A stretch of DNA of 64,000 bases from Candidatus Heimdallarchaeum endolithica. GTDB lineage: Archaea > Asgardarchaeota > Heimdallarchaeia > Heimdallarchaeales > Heimdallarchaeaceae. Below the pieces are notes generated by a model. The model ran no database searches. It had not been told where the DNA came from and worked only from the letters and a program-made list of their open reading frames with translations. Positions 47,524 to 62,182 of this stretch are shown here, one piece after another (within the stretch, counting starts at the first letter, position 1; each line of letters begins with the position of its first letter). The position numbers and the translations under genes are program-made. The stretch is taken from positions 1,984,001 through 2,048,000 of the forward strand of contig CP084167.1 of NCBI GenBank assembly GCA_021513715.1, written 5' to 3'.

Positions 47524-47770
47524 TTACGTAAAGTTTTTCGCACTCTGTCTTGCAAGAGAGGAAACAAGTAAAAGTTTAATCTCTTGAACTCAACCAAGCC
47601 ATACAATGCTATGAAGGGGTTGAGACAGACATCATACACGAAGCGTGGGAATCATAAAGAAGAAAAGAAAGTTTTTCTTTCTTTTCTTCACTCCACGAGA
47701 GACAAAAAAGAAAGAGAGAAAACTAACTCTAACACAAGAGGAGAGAATTAGTCCTTTCCTTTTTTGTCTA
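47524..47770 (-). ncRNA. Putative omegaRNA scaffold downstream of tnpB
   Basis: Stems AGACAAAAAAG/CTTTTTTGTCT, CGTGG/CCACG with a 13-bp GAAGAAAAGAAAG hairpin, and TTCGTG/TGCGAA enclosing TCTGTCT/AGACAGA, CTCAACC/GGTTGAG and CAAGAGA/TCTCTTG; ends at the element boundary. Confidence 0.7.
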
Positions 47771-49219
47771 CTGGGGCTGCAACCAATGGCTGAGTCCTAG
47801 GCAAACAGTGAAATGAGTAGAACTGTATCGCTGACCAGTGAGGTAATCAGTAATAGTTGTTCCTCGAGGACGAAAAAGAGCACCAAGGAACTTAAGAGCG
47901 ATATTTATTGCTCCTGTGAGGTCAGAGTGGAAAGTGTAGTTGCAAGAGGGGCAATGGACTAAACCTCTAACGGGACGGATAACTTTCCTCCCACAACGAG
48001 CACAGTGAGAAGATGTTCCTCTTTCCTCCACAGTTAATATTCGGTGAGGTTCAAAACCTCGAAGTATCAATGCCCGACGGAGAAGAGTAAGAACAAGGTA
48101 AAAATTCCATTGATGAAGTTTCCTGCGAAAATTACGAGTACTTTTACCTTTTCCTTTCTCCTCACGAACATGTTTAGGGTAACCTACAACGACGAAAAGG
48201 TCATACACTTGTGCATAAGTTTCTATCGTATGCACAACTTCACTTATAAATTGGTGAATATAGGCTCGTTTAACGTTTTTATATCTTCTTCGGAGAAGAC
48301 CGAGAAAACGGTAAAGTTGGTGTTTTTTACCCGACTGGTCGTTTAAAGCTGCTTTCCTCTGAAGACGGGAAAGTTTGAGTTTATATCTATGATTGACTCT
48401 ATTCCACTGTTTGGTATACCAGAACTTTATCTCTTTGTTTGTTAATTTCTTTTTAGGGGTCAGTAACACTCCTGCAGCAGGAATGTTTATCCCTAGATCT
48501 ATTCCCAGCACAGCTGGAGGAAGAGAAGAAGAATTATCTTCTTTAGTAGGATAAAAGGAAGAAGGAAGAACTCTTAGTTGGAAATACACCCACCACTCAC
48601 GTGTAGAACGTTTATATCTTAGTTCTAAACTTTTTATTCTTCCTTTCTTTAACTCTTTCTGGTGGAAAGTGCTCATCTCTAAAGGTAACCATAGTTTCTG
48701 GTGGTAAGGGGTGTTTCTTTTCCACGTATCCAACGAGTCTCTTATCCCCACCCACCAACGAGTGAGAGTGTTATTCTTCTCTTTAGGTAAATGAACGAGA
48801 ATGAACCTCTTTGCATTAATTAGTTGTCTTCTCGCTCTCTTTATTGGAGGACGAGTAGGACTGGGTCTATACCCTTGCTCATATAGTTGAACAGCTATAT
48901 CTCTACATTCTTGGAATTCATTGTGAGAACAATAAGGGAACATTTTCTTAAGATCGTGAGGAACAGTCTTTCTTCTCTCTTTTTCTTTAACTTTTGAAGT
49001 CGTTAGCGTCAGTTCATCTAATTTTCCTCTATGTACTCTTATTTTCCCTTTTTTAGTTTTAGCACATATTTTTCTTCTATTGTGGTGTATTATTCTCACA
49101 TACTTTTCTATTATCCTCGTGTCTCTCCCCGTTATTCTCCTTAACCTTTCCTTCTTCCTCGTCGTCAATACCTCCTTCTTTATTCTCACTTTCAAGGTTT
49201 TGACGACGTCCTCCACCAT
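47768..49219 (-). CDS. tnpB: TnpB/Cas12f-like RNA-guided endonuclease with rearranged RuvC-II
   Basis: N-terminal KTLKVRI, RuvC-I LGIDLG, VVVGYP in place of VxEDL, VEERGTS, CARC/CPSC zinc ribbon, RuvC-III HSDLTGAINI. Confidence 0.88.
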   Translation of the reverse strand: MVEDVVKTLKVRIKKEVLTTRKKERLRRITGRDTRIIEKYVRIIHHNRRKICAKTKKGKIRVHRGKLDELTLTTSKVKEKERRKTVPHDLKKMFPYCSHNEFQECRDIAVQLYEQGYRPSPTRPPIKRARRQLINAKRFILVHLPKEKNNTLTRWWVGIRDSLDTWKRNTPYHQKLWLPLEMSTFHQKELKKGRIKSLELRYKRSTREWWVYFQLRVLPSSFYPTKEDNSSSLPPAVLGIDLGINIPAAGVLLTPKKKLTNKEIKFWYTKQWNRVNHRYKLKLSRLQRKAALNDQSGKKHQLYRFLGLLRRRYKNVKRAYIHQFISEVVHTIETYAQVYDLFVVVGYPKHVREEKGKGKSTRNFRRKLHQWNFYLVLTLLRRALILRGFEPHRILTVEERGTSSHCARCGRKVIRPVRGLVHCPSCNYTFHSDLTGAINIALKFLGALFRPRGTTITDYLTGQRYSSTHFTVCLGLSHWLQPQ

Positions 49220-49868: not shown

Positions 49869-50200
49869 AAATATTATTACATTCAAGCTAGGAGAACATT
49901 TTTGAGCAATTAGAAAAAAACTAATACAAACATTCTATTTAAGTTAGTGAAAGTGCTAGAAAGAGAAAGTGCCTATAAACACTCATTTCAGGGTATAGTT
50001 GCAGTTTTAACCATTCAGCTTAATAACTCGTTCCAGTGGAAATAAAACAATCACCATCTAATAAGGGGTTCTTTACAATAAGAAAGTAACAAATAATAAT
50101 ATACCACCTTTCAATAACGTATATTAGACATCCATAATAAAATTAGGAGTTATAAGCTATATTATTCAAGAATATAACATTTTATAAAATAAATTCAAAC

Positions 50201-50345
50201 ATTGCAGTAAAATTGCAGTGGAAATTGCAGTAAATCTGCAGAGAAATTGCAGTAAAAAAGAAATAATGCAAGAATAAAGGTCAAAAGTATAAATGCACAT
50301 CATGATTTATAAAATATCAAAAAAAGTTGCAGTGAAATTGCAGTA
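50201..50345 (+). repeat. Array of seven ~11-bp (A)ATTGCAGT(A/G) repeats (5+2)
   Basis: TGCAG cores start at 50203, 50214, 50226, 50237, 50248, 50328 and 50339. Confidence 0.85.
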
Positions 50346-50377: not shown

Positions 50378-51127
50378 TCAACTATTTAAAGGAAAATAAA
50401 GAGGATAAATTATTTTTGCAAAGTTCTTATAGACTGGAACTCGATAATCGTATTGTTCAATTAATGAAGTTAATCTGATTATCTCAAATTCTGAATACGG
50501 TTTCATTCCTGGAAATTGCTCTGGATCTCCGTAATCTAGGATTTTATAGATTACCTCGTCCAATTCATTTAACTCTAAATAAACTTGAATTAATAAGTGG
50601 ATGTGAGGAGTTAGGAGTTCAACTTTCTTTTCTTCTTCAACTGAATTAACTATTCGCAATATTGAAAAGATCACTGCTCTTCGTGTGATGTAATCTTTTG
50701 AGTAAACCACTTCTTTCAAAGAAGATAAAATGTCAACGTCATCAAGATAACCTATTGCTCTAATAGCTGCATATTGTAAATCATAATCACTTTCTTCAAT
50801 AATTTTTTTGATAAAATCTTTCGAGGAATAGTCTCTTAACTGTCCCAGGATTTCTAATACAGACAGTTTTGTAGCTAAGGATCTCTTTTCAAGTAATTGA
50901 TGAAGCTTTAGTAGGATTTCCTCTTTTTTTTCTGGATAAAGATTAACGAGTTTAATTATAGTCAATGCTGTAGCGTTTCTTACATTCCAATCCTTGTCAC
51001 TTAAAAGTGGCAAAAGATTATTGATGTCCTTGTCTTTCCCCTTCTTTCTTAAAAAAAGAACAGCTTTTAGTCTATCTAAGTCTATTTCGCTTCCTAATTT
51101 TTTTATCATTAACCATCTTTTAAACAT
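50378..51127 (-). CDS. HEAT-repeat protein
   Basis: LLPLLSDKDWNVRNATA, IIEESDYDLQYAAIRAIG, VVYSKDYITRRAVI. Confidence 0.85.
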   Translation of the reverse strand: MFKRWLMIKKLGSEIDLDRLKAVLFLRKKGKDKDINNLLPLLSDKDWNVRNATALTIIKLVNLYPEKKEEILLKLHQLLEKRSLATKLSVLEILGQLRDYSSKDFIKKIIEESDYDLQYAAIRAIGYLDDVDILSSLKEVVYSKDYITRRAVIFSILRIVNSVEEEKKVELLTPHIHLLIQVYLELNELDEVIYKILDYGDPEQFPGMKPYSEFEIIRLTSLIEQYDYRVPVYKNFAKIIYPLYFPLNS

Positions 51128-52745
51128 AGTACATTCCTTCCTTTATTAGATAACTTATAGCGTTTCTTTGAGGTTGAGAGAGTTTCTTCAAATGTGTATA
51201 GTCTACTCGTTCAACTTCCATTTTCTCTTTTTCTTCATCGAGTTCAGTTTTGTATGCATCCTTTCTTTTCGTTACTTGAACAGCTCTAGTCACAATAGGC
51301 AAGTTATAGGGACTAATTGGTTGTTTTCTACTAATTTTATGGACAGCAAACAAAGTTGCAACGTGCATACCTCTGATTTTTTTGAAAGCGATAATGTCTG
51401 CAAAAGCAGGAAGTATGGTAGCAAAATCTTCACGATATAAAGCCATGTGATTATGCAAAATAACCAATTGATCTAGTCCCACACCTTCGTTATTGATTTC
51501 AAAGACATAAACTTTCTTTTCATCAACAGTTAAATATCCCTTGAATTCTATTTTTGGGTTATCATCCATCAATTGTCCAAAAGTACTGTATTTCTTTCTA
51601 TATATCTTTTTGATGTAATTTTCCAGTTGTGTCCAACCATAAGCATAAACAGACCAAATATCAGTGAAATTGGTAGTTGTTACATGCCAATCCTTTAACA
51701 CTTTTTCTGAATGAGCTCTTTTTTGTTCAGACACCCAATTTTTTAGCTCTTGCCAATCGAAAGTCTCAAGAAATTCTAAATCAGTCCTAAAGCTAAACAG
51801 TTTATCAAACAATCTTTTTTCAATTTCTTCTGACGAAAGGCTCTCCTTTTTCTCTTTTTCTATTTGTTCGCTTATAGCCAATTTTAGTTTATCAACTAAG
51901 AACAAACTTATTTTTCCAACAGGGGGAGCCATAAAGGGTTTAAGTTCTTTAGGAAGATTCTTGGGGACCTGTTTATTTTTATTCAAATAATCTAAATGCA
52001 TCCTTTGAATATAGAATGCAAATCCTTCATCGATTAAATCGTGGAGATGTTTCTTTCTTGATTCTTTTGCTCTTTCCTTTAGAACCTTAATAACCTCAAT
52101 TGAAAAGTTGTTGAATAAAGTGTATTTTCTTGCTTCTTCAGGAGGAGAATAAAAGTCTTGTACTCCAGCCTCAACAAACAATCGTATAACGCTTATTAGA
52201 TCCTGATAGTACTGCCAAGTCCACATCAACTGTTTGTTTGTTTCTTCGTTAATTTTGTAAGCATTATTTTGGAATAATTCTTTCAAAATTACATCTAATT
52301 GGTATATACGAGATAATTGTCTAGGATTATTGGATTCTGTTTTTTCATTCATATAGGCATGAGCAAAAGCATGAACTAGCATTATTCTCAAAGTTAATTT
52401 CTCTTCCTCTGTCAATTCATAACGAGGTGTTGAAAGATAAATTAAAGTAGGTATGCTGTTAAAAACTGTTTCTTTTCCTAACGGCATATATTCATTATTT
52501 CTTGCAGATTGTAGATGAACAACTTCTTCAGCAGTTAAGATTGCTTGGGGAGTTCCTGCACTTTCAATCACCCGATTAACAGAAATATGTAGGTCAGGGT
52601 TAAGAAATATTAGTATTCTATAATTCTCTGGTGTTTCTCCTACCAGTTCTAAGAAATCTTTTCTTGCTTTTAGATACACATTAATGATATCAGCTAATTC
52701 GTCTTTATGCATGGTAAATACTCTCCCGTAGTACTTGCTCTCCAA
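51120..52745 (-). CDS. Hypothetical protein with zincin/SpoVR-like metal-binding motifs
   Basis: LVHAFAH (HxxxH lacking the catalytic E) and downstream LIDEGFA. Start probably ATG 52712. Confidence 0.55.
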   Translation of the reverse strand: MESKYYGRVFTMHKDELADIINVYLKARKDFLELVGETPENYRILIFLNPDLHISVNRVIESAGTPQAILTAEEVVHLQSARNNEYMPLGKETVFNSIPTLIYLSTPRYELTEEEKLTLRIMLVHAFAHAYMNEKTESNNPRQLSRIYQLDVILKELFQNNAYKINEETNKQLMWTWQYYQDLISVIRLFVEAGVQDFYSPPEEARKYTLFNNFSIEVIKVLKERAKESRKKHLHDLIDEGFAFYIQRMHLDYLNKNKQVPKNLPKELKPFMAPPVGKISLFLVDKLKLAISEQIEKEKKESLSSEEIEKRLFDKLFSFRTDLEFLETFDWQELKNWVSEQKRAHSEKVLKDWHVTTTNFTDIWSVYAYGWTQLENYIKKIYRKKYSTFGQLMDDNPKIEFKGYLTVDEKKVYVFEINNEGVGLDQLVILHNHMALYREDFATILPAFADIIAFKKIRGMHVATLFAVHKISRKQPISPYNLPIVTRAVQVTKRKDAYKTELDEEKEKMEVERVDYTHLKKLSQPQRNAISYLIKEGMYYV

Positions 52746-54090
52746 GTTTGTTAATTTGTGCAGGATCTACTAAAATAGGTTTAGTTATACCTTTCAACAT
52801 TTGATACGTATGACTATAAATTTCCTTTTTTCTCAAAGCTTCTGTACCCATCAAAAAGTAACTTATGTTCCAATTTCTATTAGGATCTGATTTTAAGTGT
52901 TTAAATATTGCATTTAGTTGTAATAAGCATTCTATTGTCTCTGGACTGGTTTTAGTATCGATTGAATTGAAATAATTCTTTAATGAAGAACTAATTTTGT
53001 AATTAAATGGATAAACAGGTATGTTTGGCATACCATCTGTTACAATTGTAAGCTGAACATCGATATTTTTATGTTTATACTGTGCTTTAGCATGCTCAAT
53101 AGCTTTCAAAACACTGCTTACAGTATGTGTCTTTCCTTTTGCTTTAGCATTCAATAAAAGATCTTCCATTTTTGTATCATCATCTACTACAAATGGGTTT
53201 CTAACAATAGGAACTACTGCAAGTTGAAACATATCGTATCTTTTTCTTTTTCTCCTGTTGGCAGTCTTAAAGTAGTAATATAAACTTAGAGCAGTTAACA
53301 GAGCTCCATCTAACCTTGTCATTCCCCCCTCAAACACTTCTTTTTGCATTGATTGGCTCAAATCCACTAAGAAATATACTAAACTTCTTCTATCCTTTTT
53401 CACACGAATAATATCTTCTTGTTTTACGCGCGTTGGAGGAATTGATTGGGAACTAAGCACTGCACTTTTATAGGTTTCTCGAAGTCTAATTGTTCCTCTT
53501 GGGCGTTTTTGAACTTCATCAATAGGAAGAACATTGATTTGCTTTAATAGGTAATGCCCAAGGATGTTACCTAAAACATCCATCACTTCTTCTCGTTTTA
53601 TCCTCTTCTTTCTTCCATATGCATCTGTAATTTCCAAATCAACAATATCTTTAAGAGAGTTCAACTTATCTGCAAGAAGATTAAGATCAACTGTTCCCTC
53701 ATACTTCAGTTCTCGAAGTAAATTCTGGATGTATCGGATAATATCGTCCACTGTTTGAAGTTCATTCTTGTTTACGCGTTCTAGGACATCAGGGAGGACT
53801 CTATCTCCAATAAACTGTAATATTTTTAGTTCATTAATTAGTCTCTCTTCTTCTGCTTCAGTAAGATATGTTGTCATTATTTTTTGGAGTATGTTTTGGA
53901 TTGCAACAGCGTTTTTTGCACCTAAAGATAGTACAGCTCCTTCTCTAGAGCTCCTACCTAGGTGAGGATTACGCCAAAGTTTTAATAATTCAGCAGCACC
54001 TTCAAAGTCTAATATAAACTCAGCATCGCCGTAATTTTGTAGGGGGTCTCTAAACTCTGATTCCGTAAGTAAAAAAATTCGATGGGGCAT
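52705..54090 (-). CDS. von Willebrand factor A domain protein
   Basis: MIDAS motif FLVDLSQSM, GKT, IVTDGMPN; upstream IRLRET motif as seen in AAA-partner vWA proteins. Confidence 0.88.
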   Translation of the reverse strand: MPHRIFLLTESEFRDPLQNYGDAEFILDFEGAAELLKLWRNPHLGRSSREGAVLSLGAKNAVAIQNILQKIMTTYLTEAEEERLINELKILQFIGDRVLPDVLERVNKNELQTVDDIIRYIQNLLRELKYEGTVDLNLLADKLNSLKDIVDLEITDAYGRKKRIKREEVMDVLGNILGHYLLKQINVLPIDEVQKRPRGTIRLRETYKSAVLSSQSIPPTRVKQEDIIRVKKDRRSLVYFLVDLSQSMQKEVFEGGMTRLDGALLTALSLYYYFKTANRRKRKRYDMFQLAVVPIVRNPFVVDDDTKMEDLLLNAKAKGKTHTVSSVLKAIEHAKAQYKHKNIDVQLTIVTDGMPNIPVYPFNYKISSSLKNYFNSIDTKTSPETIECLLQLNAIFKHLKSDPNRNWNISYFLMGTEALRKKEIYSHTYQMLKGITKPILVDPAQINKLGEQVLRESIYHA

Positions 54091-54115
54091 TAGTTTTTGC
54101 CACCTTCACCAAATT

Positions 54116-55669
54116 TTAGATATAGTCTACCTTCAATAGAGCTTCATAACTCGGTTTGAGTTGTTCAACGATTTTAGGTAAAACATCTGATTCATAGTAT
54201 CGTTCTAGTTTTTCGTAATTGATAATCAATTCTGATAATTCTTCGTCACTTAATGCCTTCATCTTTGATATATCTTCACTTATATCTTCTGCTTTAACAG
54301 CCATTCCTGCGCTTTTAAGGTTGGACCTGAGTTTTATTTTTATTTCTTGTAGTGCATCATTTACCATTGCTAAAGGAATATCATAATCGTCTAATACTTT
54401 TCTTACATGTTCTATTGTAACAACATTATATTCTTCATCTTGGAGCTCTCGTTCTCTATTGAGCAACACGCTACCTACAATGTTTGATGTTGTACGTAAA
54501 TCTATATGTGGATTTCTTTGAGGATCATGAATTTCATCTAATCCTGCATAAAAGTCTAATCTTTGAACCCTGCTTTCAGAACGAATTCGTCCTTTTTTAA
54601 GAGCTTCTGGTAAAGAGTTGTTTCCAATGAATGCTAGGAAATCTATGGCTAATTTACTCACATAATCCTTCGAGCTTTTTTCTCGATCATATAATTGAAC
54701 AATACTTGGGTTTGCAGTTATTTTTTGTCTAGAGAGCGTAACTTGTTCTCTGAACATATCCCGAACAATTTGACTCCTACTTTCCACAGATCTTGCTGGC
54801 CAAAGAACTTCTGGAATACGATTGATAATAGGTTGTGATTCTTCTCCAAATACTGTTAAGGGAGCATTAGAAGTGAATATCATTGCTCCATCAATATAAA
54901 CAGGTTCACCTTGAAGATTATACTTTATTGAAGTTGTGTCTTCAAGAAATCCCATCAGTGCTTCAAGCAATGATAGGGGAAGACGCTGAATTTCGTTAAC
55001 TACAATAAAACCTTTACTAAGCACACCTACTTTATGTGATGTTGGAGTATAAGTTGTTGAAGTTTCCTTTCCAAACAGTTCTTCTAGATTCTCTACACCA
55101 GCTAATAGCATATAGAGGCTTTCAGGGTCTGTTCTTGGGTCAAGTTGTGCTTTCCGTACAACAGTTTTTTCCACACCGATTTTCAATAATTTTTCTTTGA
55201 ATTCAGCAGGTTTAATTTTAAGTATACTAGATGTATTATCTAATTTTACATCTCCTTTTCCATCACTCAAAGCATTTTCTATTTTAGTTCGACAGAAAGG
55301 ACAAAGAGATTGTAAGACCCTTATCCCATTAAAAGGATCAACTTCAAATTGCTCTACAACATCAATAATGTATCCTGCATCCTCAAGGAAAGGACAGGAA
55401 TCAATATGATACTTATGATCATTAATTTCTCGAACAATGTGATCTAGGAGAATACGACTGAATAGCGTTTTAGCTTCTCCTGTAGGACCTGTAATAAGCA
55501 CTTTTCCTCCGACAGCAAGCTTATCCATGACTAAATTCTTTGCGTCTTCATTTCCTCTAACACTTGGATCATTGATTACACGTTTTCTAAATTCGTTATT
55601 CATTAATATATGCCTAACTGAATACCCTTTATAGCCAGTTTTTATTAATTCCTCAACTGTATTGACCAT
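54116..55669 (-). CDS. AAA+ ATPase (MoxR/Mg-chelatase-like, Rv0958-type)
   Basis: N-terminal TVEELIKTGY..SVR, Walker A GPTGEAKT, Walker B IVVNE, sensor FTSN, arginine finger IINRI. Confidence 0.8.
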   Translation of the reverse strand: MVNTVEELIKTGYKGYSVRHILMNNEFRKRVINDPSVRGNEDAKNLVMDKLAVGGKVLITGPTGEAKTLFSRILLDHIVREINDHKYHIDSCPFLEDAGYIIDVVEQFEVDPFNGIRVLQSLCPFCRTKIENALSDGKGDVKLDNTSSILKIKPAEFKEKLLKIGVEKTVVRKAQLDPRTDPESLYMLLAGVENLEELFGKETSTTYTPTSHKVGVLSKGFIVVNEIQRLPLSLLEALMGFLEDTTSIKYNLQGEPVYIDGAMIFTSNAPLTVFGEESQPIINRIPEVLWPARSVESRSQIVRDMFREQVTLSRQKITANPSIVQLYDREKSSKDYVSKLAIDFLAFIGNNSLPEALKKGRIRSESRVQRLDFYAGLDEIHDPQRNPHIDLRTTSNIVGSVLLNRERELQDEEYNVVTIEHVRKVLDDYDIPLAMVNDALQEIKIKLRSNLKSAGMAVKAEDISEDISKMKALSDEELSELIINYEKLERYYESDVLPKIVEQLKPSYEALLKVDYI

Positions 55670-55705
55670 TTAAATGCACCATTTATCATTCTTTCAAGTA
55701 AAGAT

Positions 55706-56305
55706 TTAAGATTCATTATCATTTTTCTTATCTACAATAACAATCTTTTTTTGAGAAAGTTTAGTTTTAAGACTTTCTTTTCTTTCCCAATCTAATGTCC
55801 AACCCATCCATATCGCTTCCTTAAGCCAGTTTAATGCGCTTAATAAGTCGTTAACGTCTCCAACCTCAAATAGCTTCCAAACCCTATCTGTTAATCTAAC
55901 AAGCGACAGATTCTCTATCAGTTCTCCACTTGTTAAAGAGCCTTGTAAATTACTATTATAAGCACAAATTGCTATTGGTTTTTCTCTTAGATCCTCGTTC
56001 CAAATGATTCTTTCCCAAAAGAAAGCTCGCTCATGCTTAATCATATCTTCTTTTGTAGCATCGATAAGATATAAAATCCCCTCAAATGTTTCGAAAAGTT
56101 TAGGCTTAAACTTAAACTTGTCTTCAACTGGAAGCTTAGAAAGATAGTCATCTAAAAGAAAATCATCAATTGAGATTTCTGCATTTAACAGTTTTACTCT
56201 ATTTCTAGCTGCTGGAGTATCATTTCCCATAATCAATATTGAAACTTCTGGCTTTCCCAATCGTCTTCGAATTGAGAGCAATAGTTGATTTATTTTGTTG
56301 GACAT
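55706..56305 (-). CDS. Arf-like small GTPase homolog with degenerate G motifs (pseudo-GTPase)
   Basis: EVSILIMG, GILYLIDAT and DLREKPIAICAYNSNL...LSLVRLTDRVW follow Arf spacing, but GKT, DxxG and NKxD are absent. Confidence 0.7.
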   Translation of the reverse strand: MSNKINQLLLSIRRRLGKPEVSILIMGNDTPAARNRVKLLNAEISIDDFLLDDYLSKLPVEDKFKFKPKLFETFEGILYLIDATKEDMIKHERAFFWERIIWNEDLREKPIAICAYNSNLQGSLTSGELIENLSLVRLTDRVWKLFEVGDVNDLLSALNWLKEAIWMGWTLDWERKESLKTKLSQKKIVIVDKKNDNES

Positions 56306-56393
56306 TGTCTCTTGATTTCGAGAAATAATAAATGTTTATAAGGATTTCATTTCGAAGGAAAAATAATTAATGATATAAACATACTAGAAAAAT

Positions 56394-61243: not shown

Positions 61244-62182
61244 TCACACTGTAATAACCTTAACTTTATCTTGGTCTTTGATGTTTAACACATTTAGTAT
61301 TCCTTTTATGAGTTCATCTTTTGTTCTAGCTTTTTTCTTTTCAAGATATTCATATACTTGTTCAATGTATCTTTGTGCCTCTACATGAGACTCTTCTGGA
61401 TTTATGATCATGGTTATTATCACGTCACTTCTTTCGTGGCATACAAGTTTTATATTTTCGTTTGAGGTAGTCGATAATTTTTCTTCTTTAAGTGTAGCTG
61501 ATTCATATTTAAATATTTGAGCTAATAATTCTCTGATTTGTGATATTTGCTGCGATAATCCTTCAAAATCTAAGAATAATTGTACCCTTCCGAGTGTTGT
61601 ACTGATTATCAAGCCTTTTGGGTGGACTATCTTTTCTTGTCCTATTTGTTTTAGTTTATTTGTAAACCAATTTAAAGCATCATTTATTCCTTCTCCTGTT
61701 TTGTTACTGGTCTTAAATATCTGGAAACTGATCTTTGAGTAGTTACTCAGTCTTGGAAGTTCGAGCGTTTCAATGATTTCTTCTATTGACATACATTCTA
61801 AATCTGCTTTATTGGCAAAAAAGGCAACTACTATTCTGTCCTCAATTTCAATATTTTTAATAAGGTACCAGAACCACTCCTTACCTTCGGCAGTTTTTTC
61901 TTTATCAGAAGCGTCAAAGACAAAAATAATACCATAGCTATTTGATGCGTAATTCACCCAAAACTGTTTACGATAAACAAATTGTCCCCCAACATCAAAT
62001 ATCTTGAATAAGGTGTCGCCCACTTTAAAAGATTCAAAACTTACTCCTAGTGTGGGAGTAGTATCTTCCACAAAGGAGCCTGTTTTTAATCTTTCAACTA
62101 AAGTGGTTTTTCCAGCATTTTCTAACCCTAGTATAGTTACTGGTACTGATTCTTTTCCTACCTTTAGTACTTTATCATTCAC
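61244..62182 (-). CDS. Arf/Sar-family small GTPase fused to a C-terminal longin/roadblock-like domain
   Basis: GLENAGKTT, PTLG, DVGGQ, NKAD, TSNK; C-terminal alpha/beta domain (GLIISTTLGR...VIITMII). Confidence 0.85.
   Translation of the reverse strand: MNDKVLKVGKESVPVTILGLENAGKTTLVERLKTGSFVEDTTPTLGVSFESFKVGDTLFKIFDVGGQFVYRKQFWVNYASNSYGIIFVFDASDKEKTAEGKEWFWYLIKNIEIEDRIVVAFFANKADLECMSIEEIIETLELPRLSNYSKISFQIFKTSNKTGEGINDALNWFTNKLKQIGQEKIVHPKGLIISTTLGRVQLFLDFEGLSQQISQIRELLAQIFKYESATLKEEKLSTTSNENIKLVCHERSDVIITMIINPEESHVEAQRYIEQVYEYLEKKKARTKDELIKGILNVLNIKDQDKVKVITV

Follow-up and report, generated by a model that had tools for sequence, protein, structure and literature searches.

In a 64,000-nucleotide stretch of the genome of Candidatus Heimdallarchaeum endolithica (GenBank assembly GCA_021513715.1, contig CP084167.1, positions 1,984,001 to 2,048,000; hereafter the window) we analysed an operon of five minus-strand open reading frames (ORFs) at 50378-56305, encoding an Arf-like protein, an AAA+ ATPase, a von Willebrand factor A (vWA) protein, a protein with a SpoVR-like zincin fold (here called X) and a HEAT-repeat protein. 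The genome comprises 3.33 Mb on one contig, with 31% GC. An earlier note on this DNA had described five co-directional genes with gaps of 36 and 25 bp followed by overlaps; these coordinates and its five domain calls hold, and only the start of gene 4 was corrected. The features are as follows.

56306..56393, no strand: divergent intergenic stretch of 88 bp, AT-rich, separating the operon from a NUDIX-like gene; presumed, from its sequence, to hold the promoter
55706..56305, minus strand: gene 1, by its motifs an Arf-derived pseudo-GTPase, 199 amino acids (Pfam Arf, PDB profile matches, complex prediction)
54116..55669, minus strand: gene 2, AAA+ ATPase of the PrkA/Rv0958 branch, 517 amino acids (invariant motifs, HHalign against PrkA, model)
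52705..54090, minus strand: gene 3, vWA protein, 461 amino acids, a helical N-terminal half followed by an intact metal ion-dependent adhesion site (MIDAS) (MIDAS residues, HHalign)
51120..52712, minus strand: gene 4 (X), SpoVR-like zincin-fold protein, 530 amino acids from the probable ATG (AlphaFold2 model, fold matches, motif counts)
50378..51127, minus strand: gene 5, HEAT-repeat protein, 249 amino acids (Pfam HEAT_2 E 1e-12, complex prediction, interface conservation)

As listed, the ORF of X spans 51120-52745 (541 amino acids from a TTG start), but its real start is most likely the ATG at 52712, since the resulting 8-bp overlap matches the overlap of homologues. A Pfam scan of the window proteins returned Arf for gene 1 (E 9e-7; 28.9 bits, cut-off 22.3), HEAT_2 for gene 5 and weak VWA_2 and Sigma54/AAA_5 matches. 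Neither Pfam nor NCBIfam supplied a name for X or the ATPase, and PDB sequence searches with X, the ATPase and the vWA protein gave nothing useful. Close paralogues of the Arf, AAA+, vWA and X genes are absent from the genome. A promoter and terminator scan, which used a bacterial consensus only, stayed at chance level. The combination had not been recognised as described in the earlier note, and our literature search, in which subscription papers were mostly not covered, likewise found no paper describing the operon or pairing Asgard with SpoVR or Heimdallarchae with PrkA.

The five-gene arrangement is conserved in most Heimdall-group Asgard archaea. We surveyed 400 Asgard species genomes, including 58 from five Heimdallarchaeia families. 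In these five families the ATPase is present in 55/58 genomes (one match being a contig-edge fragment), the pseudo-Arf in 54/58 (E<=1e-12) and X in 53/58. Neither the ATPase nor X was found in the 22 genomes of a sixth family of the class; the ATPase was also not found in either genome of a seventh nor, bar one marginal match, in the other Asgard genomes (about 340 outside the five families in all), and the pattern for X was the same. Only 20 relatives of X were recovered among 1.84 billion cluster representatives. The named homologues belong to Heimdallarchaeaceae and Kariarchaeaceae, and the window ATPase shares 98% identity with its counterpart in Ca. Heimdallarchaeum aukensis PM71. A synteny survey across Asgard genomes, which the earlier note had proposed, showed the order AAA-vWA-X-HEAT to be held at every species-genome locus long enough to show it. 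Because this order recurs at 40 or more loci, down to about 53% ATPase identity, the arrangement is not due to chance.

At most loci the Arf-like gene lies directly upstream of the ATPase gene. In one genus of a third family and in two small families it is located elsewhere in the genome; the relocated genes match at E 1e-31 to 1e-52, the copies of family 4 being more degenerate. Loss of the pseudo-Arf where the operon stands without it was thus rejected, the gene having moved. In genus g7 (L070:8606-9187 and L074:8614-9198) a protein of about 193 amino acids with an N-terminal CxxC...CxxC occupies the pseudo-Arf's spot upstream of the ATPase. In deeper homologues (35-44% identity), which submitters had assigned to Hodarchaeota, Hermodarchaeota or Promethearchaeota, vWA-X-HEAT stay linked and the ATPase gene is either a divergent neighbour or about 45 kb off; on one 2.85-Mb metagenome contig the ATPase is distant from the X-HEAT pair. 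The operon is therefore breakable, yet its genes are retained as a set. Three of the deep-lineage loci carry a 178-amino-acid gene after the ATPase (L157:2707-3243, L158:3906-4442 and L093:1693-2229, the last encoding a hydrophobic membrane protein), followed in two of the three by a RuBisCO-large-subunit family gene. Genes of 177-178 amino acids beside deep homologues were rejected as Arf, being membrane proteins, as was a 509-amino-acid gene in L091 as a second ATPase. Weak, below-cut-off SpoVR-profile matches within ORFs of about 1300 amino acids in other Asgard families (L095-L098) probably belong to other zincin-domain proteins.

Modules of PrkA/YeaG (SpdA), YeaH/YhbH (DUF444, PF04285) and SpoVR/YcgB (PF04293) occur in bacteria, haloarchaea and some phages. 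We lean towards reading the operon as a Heimdallarchaeia-specific, strongly diverged relative of this PrkA(YeaG)-YeaH-SpoVR(YcgB) module, acting as an ATP-driven protein remodelling or turnover complex. The earlier note's comparison of the AAA+, vWA and peptidase-like genes with the YeaG/YeaH/SpoVR triad is borne out by the ATPase and X matches given below. The core resembles PrkA-YeaH-SpoVR more than MoxR, and it is a mosaic, with Rv0958-like motifs in the ATPase and a vWA protein nearer Rv0959/ChlD. Single-sequence HHalign comparisons with E. coli YeaG, YeaH and YcgB were too weak, hence profiles were built.

The ATPase has a Walker A motif at residues 61-68 (K67), Walker B residues Asn225-Glu226, sensor-1 N268, a putative arginine finger (R284) and a putative sensor-2 (R392). 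Since K67, N225, E226, N268, R284 and R392 are invariant in 31/31 homologues, the catalytic machinery of the enzyme appears intact, even though Asn replaces the Walker B Asp. It carries the PrkA-type Cys-Pro insertion after Walker A (C92, C123, C126); a zinc ribbon as the reading of this insertion is unestablished, just three Cys being conserved and these substituted in 3/31. Against PrkA, HHalign gave 97% (E 7e-11) over 246 columns, insertion included, and still 96-97% over 220-246 columns with four-sequence PrkA profiles, whereas the profile match to MoxR spans only 71 columns in the Walker A region. We also ran a hidden Markov model of the ATPase against a 3,624-ORF control set that included the host's MoxR and other AAA+ proteins, RavA, YehL, ChlI-type proteins and an Rv0958-type gene; the six best non-self matches were all PrkA. 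The best tblastn matches in plasmids were PrkA-like proteins too. The Pfam AAA_5 score is 14 bits, under the cut-off of 22, and Asn225 is present in 31/31, so a canonical MoxR Walker B Asp-Glu is absent. HslU, a Foldseek fold match with a template modelling (TM) score below 0.2, was uninformative.

To Rv0958-type proteins the HHalign match is 34% (E 4e-4). The ATPase shares with them its N-terminal start, an Ala in Walker A and the Asn-Glu Walker B, and PrkA and Rv0958 are themselves related (98% in a profile comparison); because of these Rv0958-like features and this kinship, the ATPase is best seen as a third branch of a PrkA+Rv0958 group. At 517 amino acids it is about 130 shorter than YeaG. 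The alignment to PrkA stops near residue 308, and no match to the PrkA C-terminal 'kinase' region was detectable. Short stand-alone PrkA-like ATPases (466-497 amino acids), missing most of the C-terminal region, are encoded on Bacillaceae megaplasmids (L101:6782-8182 and L102:6623-8116), and one of these is the top non-self match of the Heimdall ATPase profile. PrkA/YeaH/SpoVR sets are also carried by Thermus phages, a Ralstonia jumbo phage and uncultured huge phages (L105, L106, L107, L108, L109), and some phage PrkAs likewise have Ala in Walker A.

The vWA protein has a complete MIDAS (DxSxS...T...D: D243, S245, S247, T321 and D352), invariant in 28/28 homologues. Its HHalign match to YeaH is weak (E 0.01-0.016) and collinear over 173 columns; the match to Rv0959-type proteins reaches 90% (E 1.6e-6). 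It is a vWA protein of the AAA-adaptor, MIDAS chaperone-adaptor type.

For X, the AlphaFold2 model is confident (predicted local distance difference test (pLDDT) 84.6; predicted TM score 0.86). The N-terminal two thirds form a gluzincin fold (VIA Z 9-11 to the DUF885, M1 and M32 zincins), and the only Atlas match of the model is a SpoVR cluster (TM 0.52, 362 residues aligned) that covers residues 6-523, the full length including the C-terminal domain. HHalign against SpoVR gave E 7e-4, in register of the third zinc ligand. Foldseek against the PDB returned nothing below E 0.001; anthrax lethal factor (E 0.05, TM 0.1) was rejected as sharing only the generic zincin fold, and an ESM feature search with X returned unnamed bacterial clusters alone. 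The window protein and 29/44 homologues retain the ligands His114, His118 and Glu229, whereas 15/44 have lost at least one, including whole lineages that otherwise keep the gene. The catalytic Glu of HExxH is absent from X in 44/44 homologues. Canonical SpoVR also lacks this residue, and its absence therefore does not set X apart from SpoVR.

Several observations weigh against a PrkA-YeaH-SpoVR relationship or against the function drawn from it. The X-SpoVR TM score is barely above threshold and compares predicted models on both sides, and PF04293 matched neither the 30 X members searched nor the genome. In PF08298 (AAA_PrkA) the best ATPase score is 18.2 bits (E 0.0013, in 2/31 members), under the cut-off of 25 bits; the vWA protein has no Pfam match to PF04285 and is nearer the Rv0959/ChlD type than YeaH. 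The ATPase model (pLDDT 78.8) has RavA and BchI (both VIA Z 11) and MCM as its nearest folds, and the ESM feature neighbours shown for it are AAA_5/Mg-chelatase clusters and include none of PrkA. For this model, neither Foldseek nor VIA placed the solved PrkA-family entry 9xip among the top rows, though it may not be in those libraries. Moreover, it is disputed whether PrkA itself has protease activity (PMC9512850 vs PMC13001217), and near-universal single-copy retention suits a housekeeping role as well as one in stress.

These points bear on a second, somewhat unlikely account, in which the genes encode an AAA+/vWA chaperone dedicated to maturation, similar in kind to Rv0958/Rv0959, MoxR or the chelatases, its client being a product of the operon itself (for example through metal insertion into or removal from X) or one housekeeping enzyme, and the SpoVR likeness of X reflecting a mere shared zincin fold. 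The Rv0958-type N-terminal start, Walker A Ala and Asn-Glu of the ATPase, the Rv0959-type match of the vWA protein, the RavA and BchI folds and the AAA_5/Mg-chelatase features would all fit. However, the PrkA match is longer and stronger and takes in the PrkA-type insertion, the Rv0958-type loci that we fetched have no SpoVR-like neighbour, the SpoVR match of X extends over its C-terminal domain, and the metal ligands of X are dispensable in 15/44 homologues.

Gene 1 matches Arl1 (E 2e-11, PDB) and the PDB entries 8oul/8ouk, 'Arf GTPase' (E 2e-8), in profile searches; it resembles Arf/Arl chiefly in its C-terminal half, and its best matches in the host genome are intact Arf-type GTPases. G1 (P-loop) and G3 (DxxG) are each found in 0/23 homologues. 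The earlier note's Arf pseudo-GTPase thus stands: judged by its matches and motifs, the protein is Arf-derived and unable to switch with GTP. An interaction with the HEAT protein, in line with the Arf-like adaptor and solenoid scaffold of the earlier note, was returned by complex prediction, at a score of 0.68 against 0.01 for the best control; the mark used for such scores is reached by 58/80 solved complexes and 2/110 mismatched pairs. Runs agreed in at least 81% of contacts, with partner pLDDT of at least 74. The predicted interface comprises residues 93-108 and 134-144 on the C-terminal face of the pseudo-Arf, outside the switch regions, and a conserved face of the HEAT protein (R50, E92, D116, Y119 and R150). 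On the pseudo-Arf side the interface residues are the most conserved of the family (0.71 vs 0.46 for the rest); on the HEAT side conservation is 0.58 vs 0.48 (p 0.017 by resampling, with kin that are not independent). In the single family-4 genome checked, both sides of the interface, the Arf patch and its counterpart residues in the HEAT protein, are altered. The score is possibly inflated by likeness to solved Arf-solenoid complexes, though the interface avoids the switch regions and is the most conserved part. The pseudo-Arf and the HEAT protein are thus predicted to form a heterodimer.

Such a heterodimer could tether the complex to a membrane. In this third account, which adds to the PrkA-type reading rather than excluding it and which we hold tentatively, as unlikely, the operon would encode a membrane-tethered remodelling or quality-control machine, the pseudo-Arf serving as an anchor whose amphipathic helix is always exposed and which keeps the HEAT scaffold, and thereby the AAA/vWA/SpoVR core, at the membrane. 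The earlier note had proposed a membrane-associated complex. None of the five window proteins has a transmembrane segment, whereas the deep-lineage HEAT homologues do: their N-terminal hydrophobic segments reach a 19-residue hydropathy of 2.2-2.4, against 0.85 for the window HEAT protein. Membrane association of the window complex is putative. These deep HEAT proteins are weakly similar in sequence (E 0.01-0.3) and were assigned mostly by position; no Arf-like gene lies near them, although the word-based search for pseudo-Arf in deep lineages misses even known members. The pseudo-Arf N-terminus looks basic and amphipathic in the window protein's family, with a hydrophobic moment of 0.53-0.98 among family-1 pseudo-Arfs (several at 0.74-0.98, the window protein at 0.61), but most homologues of other families have little or no such helix (about 0.4). 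Asgard ArfR binds membranes via an N-terminal amphipathic helix, but GerdArfR1 requires GTP to do so (bioRxiv 10.1101/2024.02.28.582541). An anchor swap, pseudo-Arf for a transmembrane HEAT anchor, is possible. The combined proposal, that a PrkA/SpoVR-type turnover machine is coupled through the HEAT solenoid to a dead Arf GTPase that anchors it constitutively to the membrane, replacing the transmembrane anchor of deeper lineages, is one to which we give little weight. If true, prokaryotes would offer an example in which an AAA+ remodelling machine is targeted to membranes by an Arf-family protein together with a solenoid.

That X might be an active zinc protease fed by the ATPase, forming a self-contained ATP-dependent protease like FtsH or Lon, appears quite improbable. 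X does have a zincin fold, the window protein, like 29/44 homologues, has a complete His-His-Glu triad, and PrkA/YeaG has been tied to proteolysis (PMC9512850, PMC13684143). The catalytic Glu is missing throughout, however, and the loss of metal ligands in 15/44 homologues, in whole lineages where the gene is otherwise conserved, argues that catalysis is not the conserved role of X. The earlier note's zincin/SpoVR-like call stands in the model, while X as a conserved active peptidase is unlikely. Least probable by far is a proto-coat, with Arf, solenoid and vWA protein as precursors of Sar1/Arf, adaptin/COP and Sec23/24-type parts: an Arf fold and HEAT repeats in archaea near eukaryotes, the predicted Arf-HEAT contact and a marginal Adaptin_N match (E 0.01, far under cut-off) speak for it, but the pseudo-Arf has no GTP switch, the predicted interface lies away from the switch regions read by coats, the vWA protein has an intact MIDAS, AAA-adaptor affinities and no Sec23/24 match in the profile and PDB searches, the HEAT protein has only about 250 amino acids, and no eukaryotic relative of X is evident among its 20 matches. 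We therefore do not retain the link to eukaryotic coats drawn in the earlier note, and the operon provides no evidence for a proto-coat.

Returning to a diverged PrkA-YeaH-SpoVR module, we propose that the ATPase, whose motifs are conserved, would bind and hydrolyse ATP, probably as a ring. The vWA protein may act as its adaptor, the MIDAS metal gripping an acidic residue of a partner or client, as the MoxR and chelatase pairs suggest. X, given its predicted fold and its ligand losses, could serve, mostly without catalysis, as a scaffold or as a subunit that binds peptides. The pseudo-Arf and HEAT protein, predicted with controls to pair independently of nucleotide, may form an accessory unit for localisation or client selection. 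In bacteria yeaG, yeaH and ycgB are cofit in six species and the trio acts as one unit (bioRxiv 10.1101/072470), and YeaG drives starvation-induced proteolysis, a breakdown of proteins on a global scale when E. coli starves (PMC13684143). If YeaG/SpdA and PrkA are a guide, the operon would most likely serve protein turnover linked to stress or starvation. As a very diverged archaeal version, it separates retained features (ATPase motifs, MIDAS and SpoVR fold) from expendable ones (the 'kinase' tail, as well as the zinc ligands in some lineages). This pattern speaks against a universal core function in kinase signalling or in proteolysis by SpoVR. The operon also supplies, from archaea near eukaryotes, a conserved pseudo-Arf for which a specific HEAT partner is predicted; both proteins are small, soluble and readily testable.

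Around the operon, the 3' intergenic region just beyond the HEAT gene contains the 7-mer TTGCAGT six times at 50200-50345, the sole cluster of that size genome-wide and perhaps a repeat that a protein binds or that is associated with a terminator. In the interval from uvrB to the operon, 47768-49219 (minus strand) encodes a 483-amino-acid basic protein with a C-terminal CxxC...CxxC, IS200/IS605 TnpB-like by appearance; the site is empty of it in H. aukensis. At 61244-62182 (minus strand), 5 kb upstream of the operon, lies a gene for an Arf-type GTPase that is intact (Pfam Arf E 4e-35) and has a C-terminal extension of about 130 amino acids; it was left out of the operon because the equivalent position is occupied only in H. 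aukensis.

Among known systems, eukaryotic coats (Sar1/Arf with Sec23/24 or adaptin) differ in having the switch motifs and the Sec23/24 and adaptin families that the Heimdall proteins do not match above cut-off. The Asgard ArfR GTPases (bioRxiv 10.1101/2024.02.28.582541; PDB 8ouk/8oul) share with the pseudo-Arf an Arf-type C-terminal half and size; unlike them, all 23 pseudo-Arfs have lost G1 and G3, the amphipathic helix is kept in part, and their conserved surface is where the HEAT protein is predicted to bind. No pseudo-Arf family was found in the text searched of that preprint. MoxR/vWA pairs (RavA-ViaA, NorQ-NorD, CbbQ-CbbO) and the Mg-chelatase BchI/BchD combine an ATPase of the same broad AAA+ clade with a MIDAS vWA adaptor, but the Heimdall ATPase differs in its short match, the Walker B Asn for Asp and the Cys-Pro insertion, and the host's own MoxR genes are located elsewhere in the genome. 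The Rv0958/Rv0959-type pairs, an AAA+ protein annotated as a 'sigma 54-interacting transcriptional regulator' beside a long vWA protein, are similar in the N-terminal start, Walker variants and vWA domain; they differ in the weaker ATPase match (34% vs 97% to PrkA), in vWA proteins of 660-700 amino acids vs 461, and in fetched loci without SpoVR-like, Arf or HEAT neighbours. With the prkA-yeaH-spoVR module the operon shares an identical gene order (AAA-vWA-SpoVR-like), the insertion after Walker A and a first acidic Walker B position without Asp, and X shares with SpoVR the predicted fold and, where its ligands are kept, a His-x3-His helix without the catalytic Glu and a downstream EG motif. 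Unlike that module, it has an ATPase of 517 rather than 620-690 amino acids with another N-terminus and no C-terminal 'kinase' match, a vWA protein that is weakly YeaH-like, and single-copy, near-universal retention in its clade. Thus the operon is of the PrkA-YeaH-SpoVR type in likeness, yet all three of its core proteins fall under the cut-offs of the corresponding Pfam families, and it adds two genes, the pseudo-Arf and the HEAT protein.

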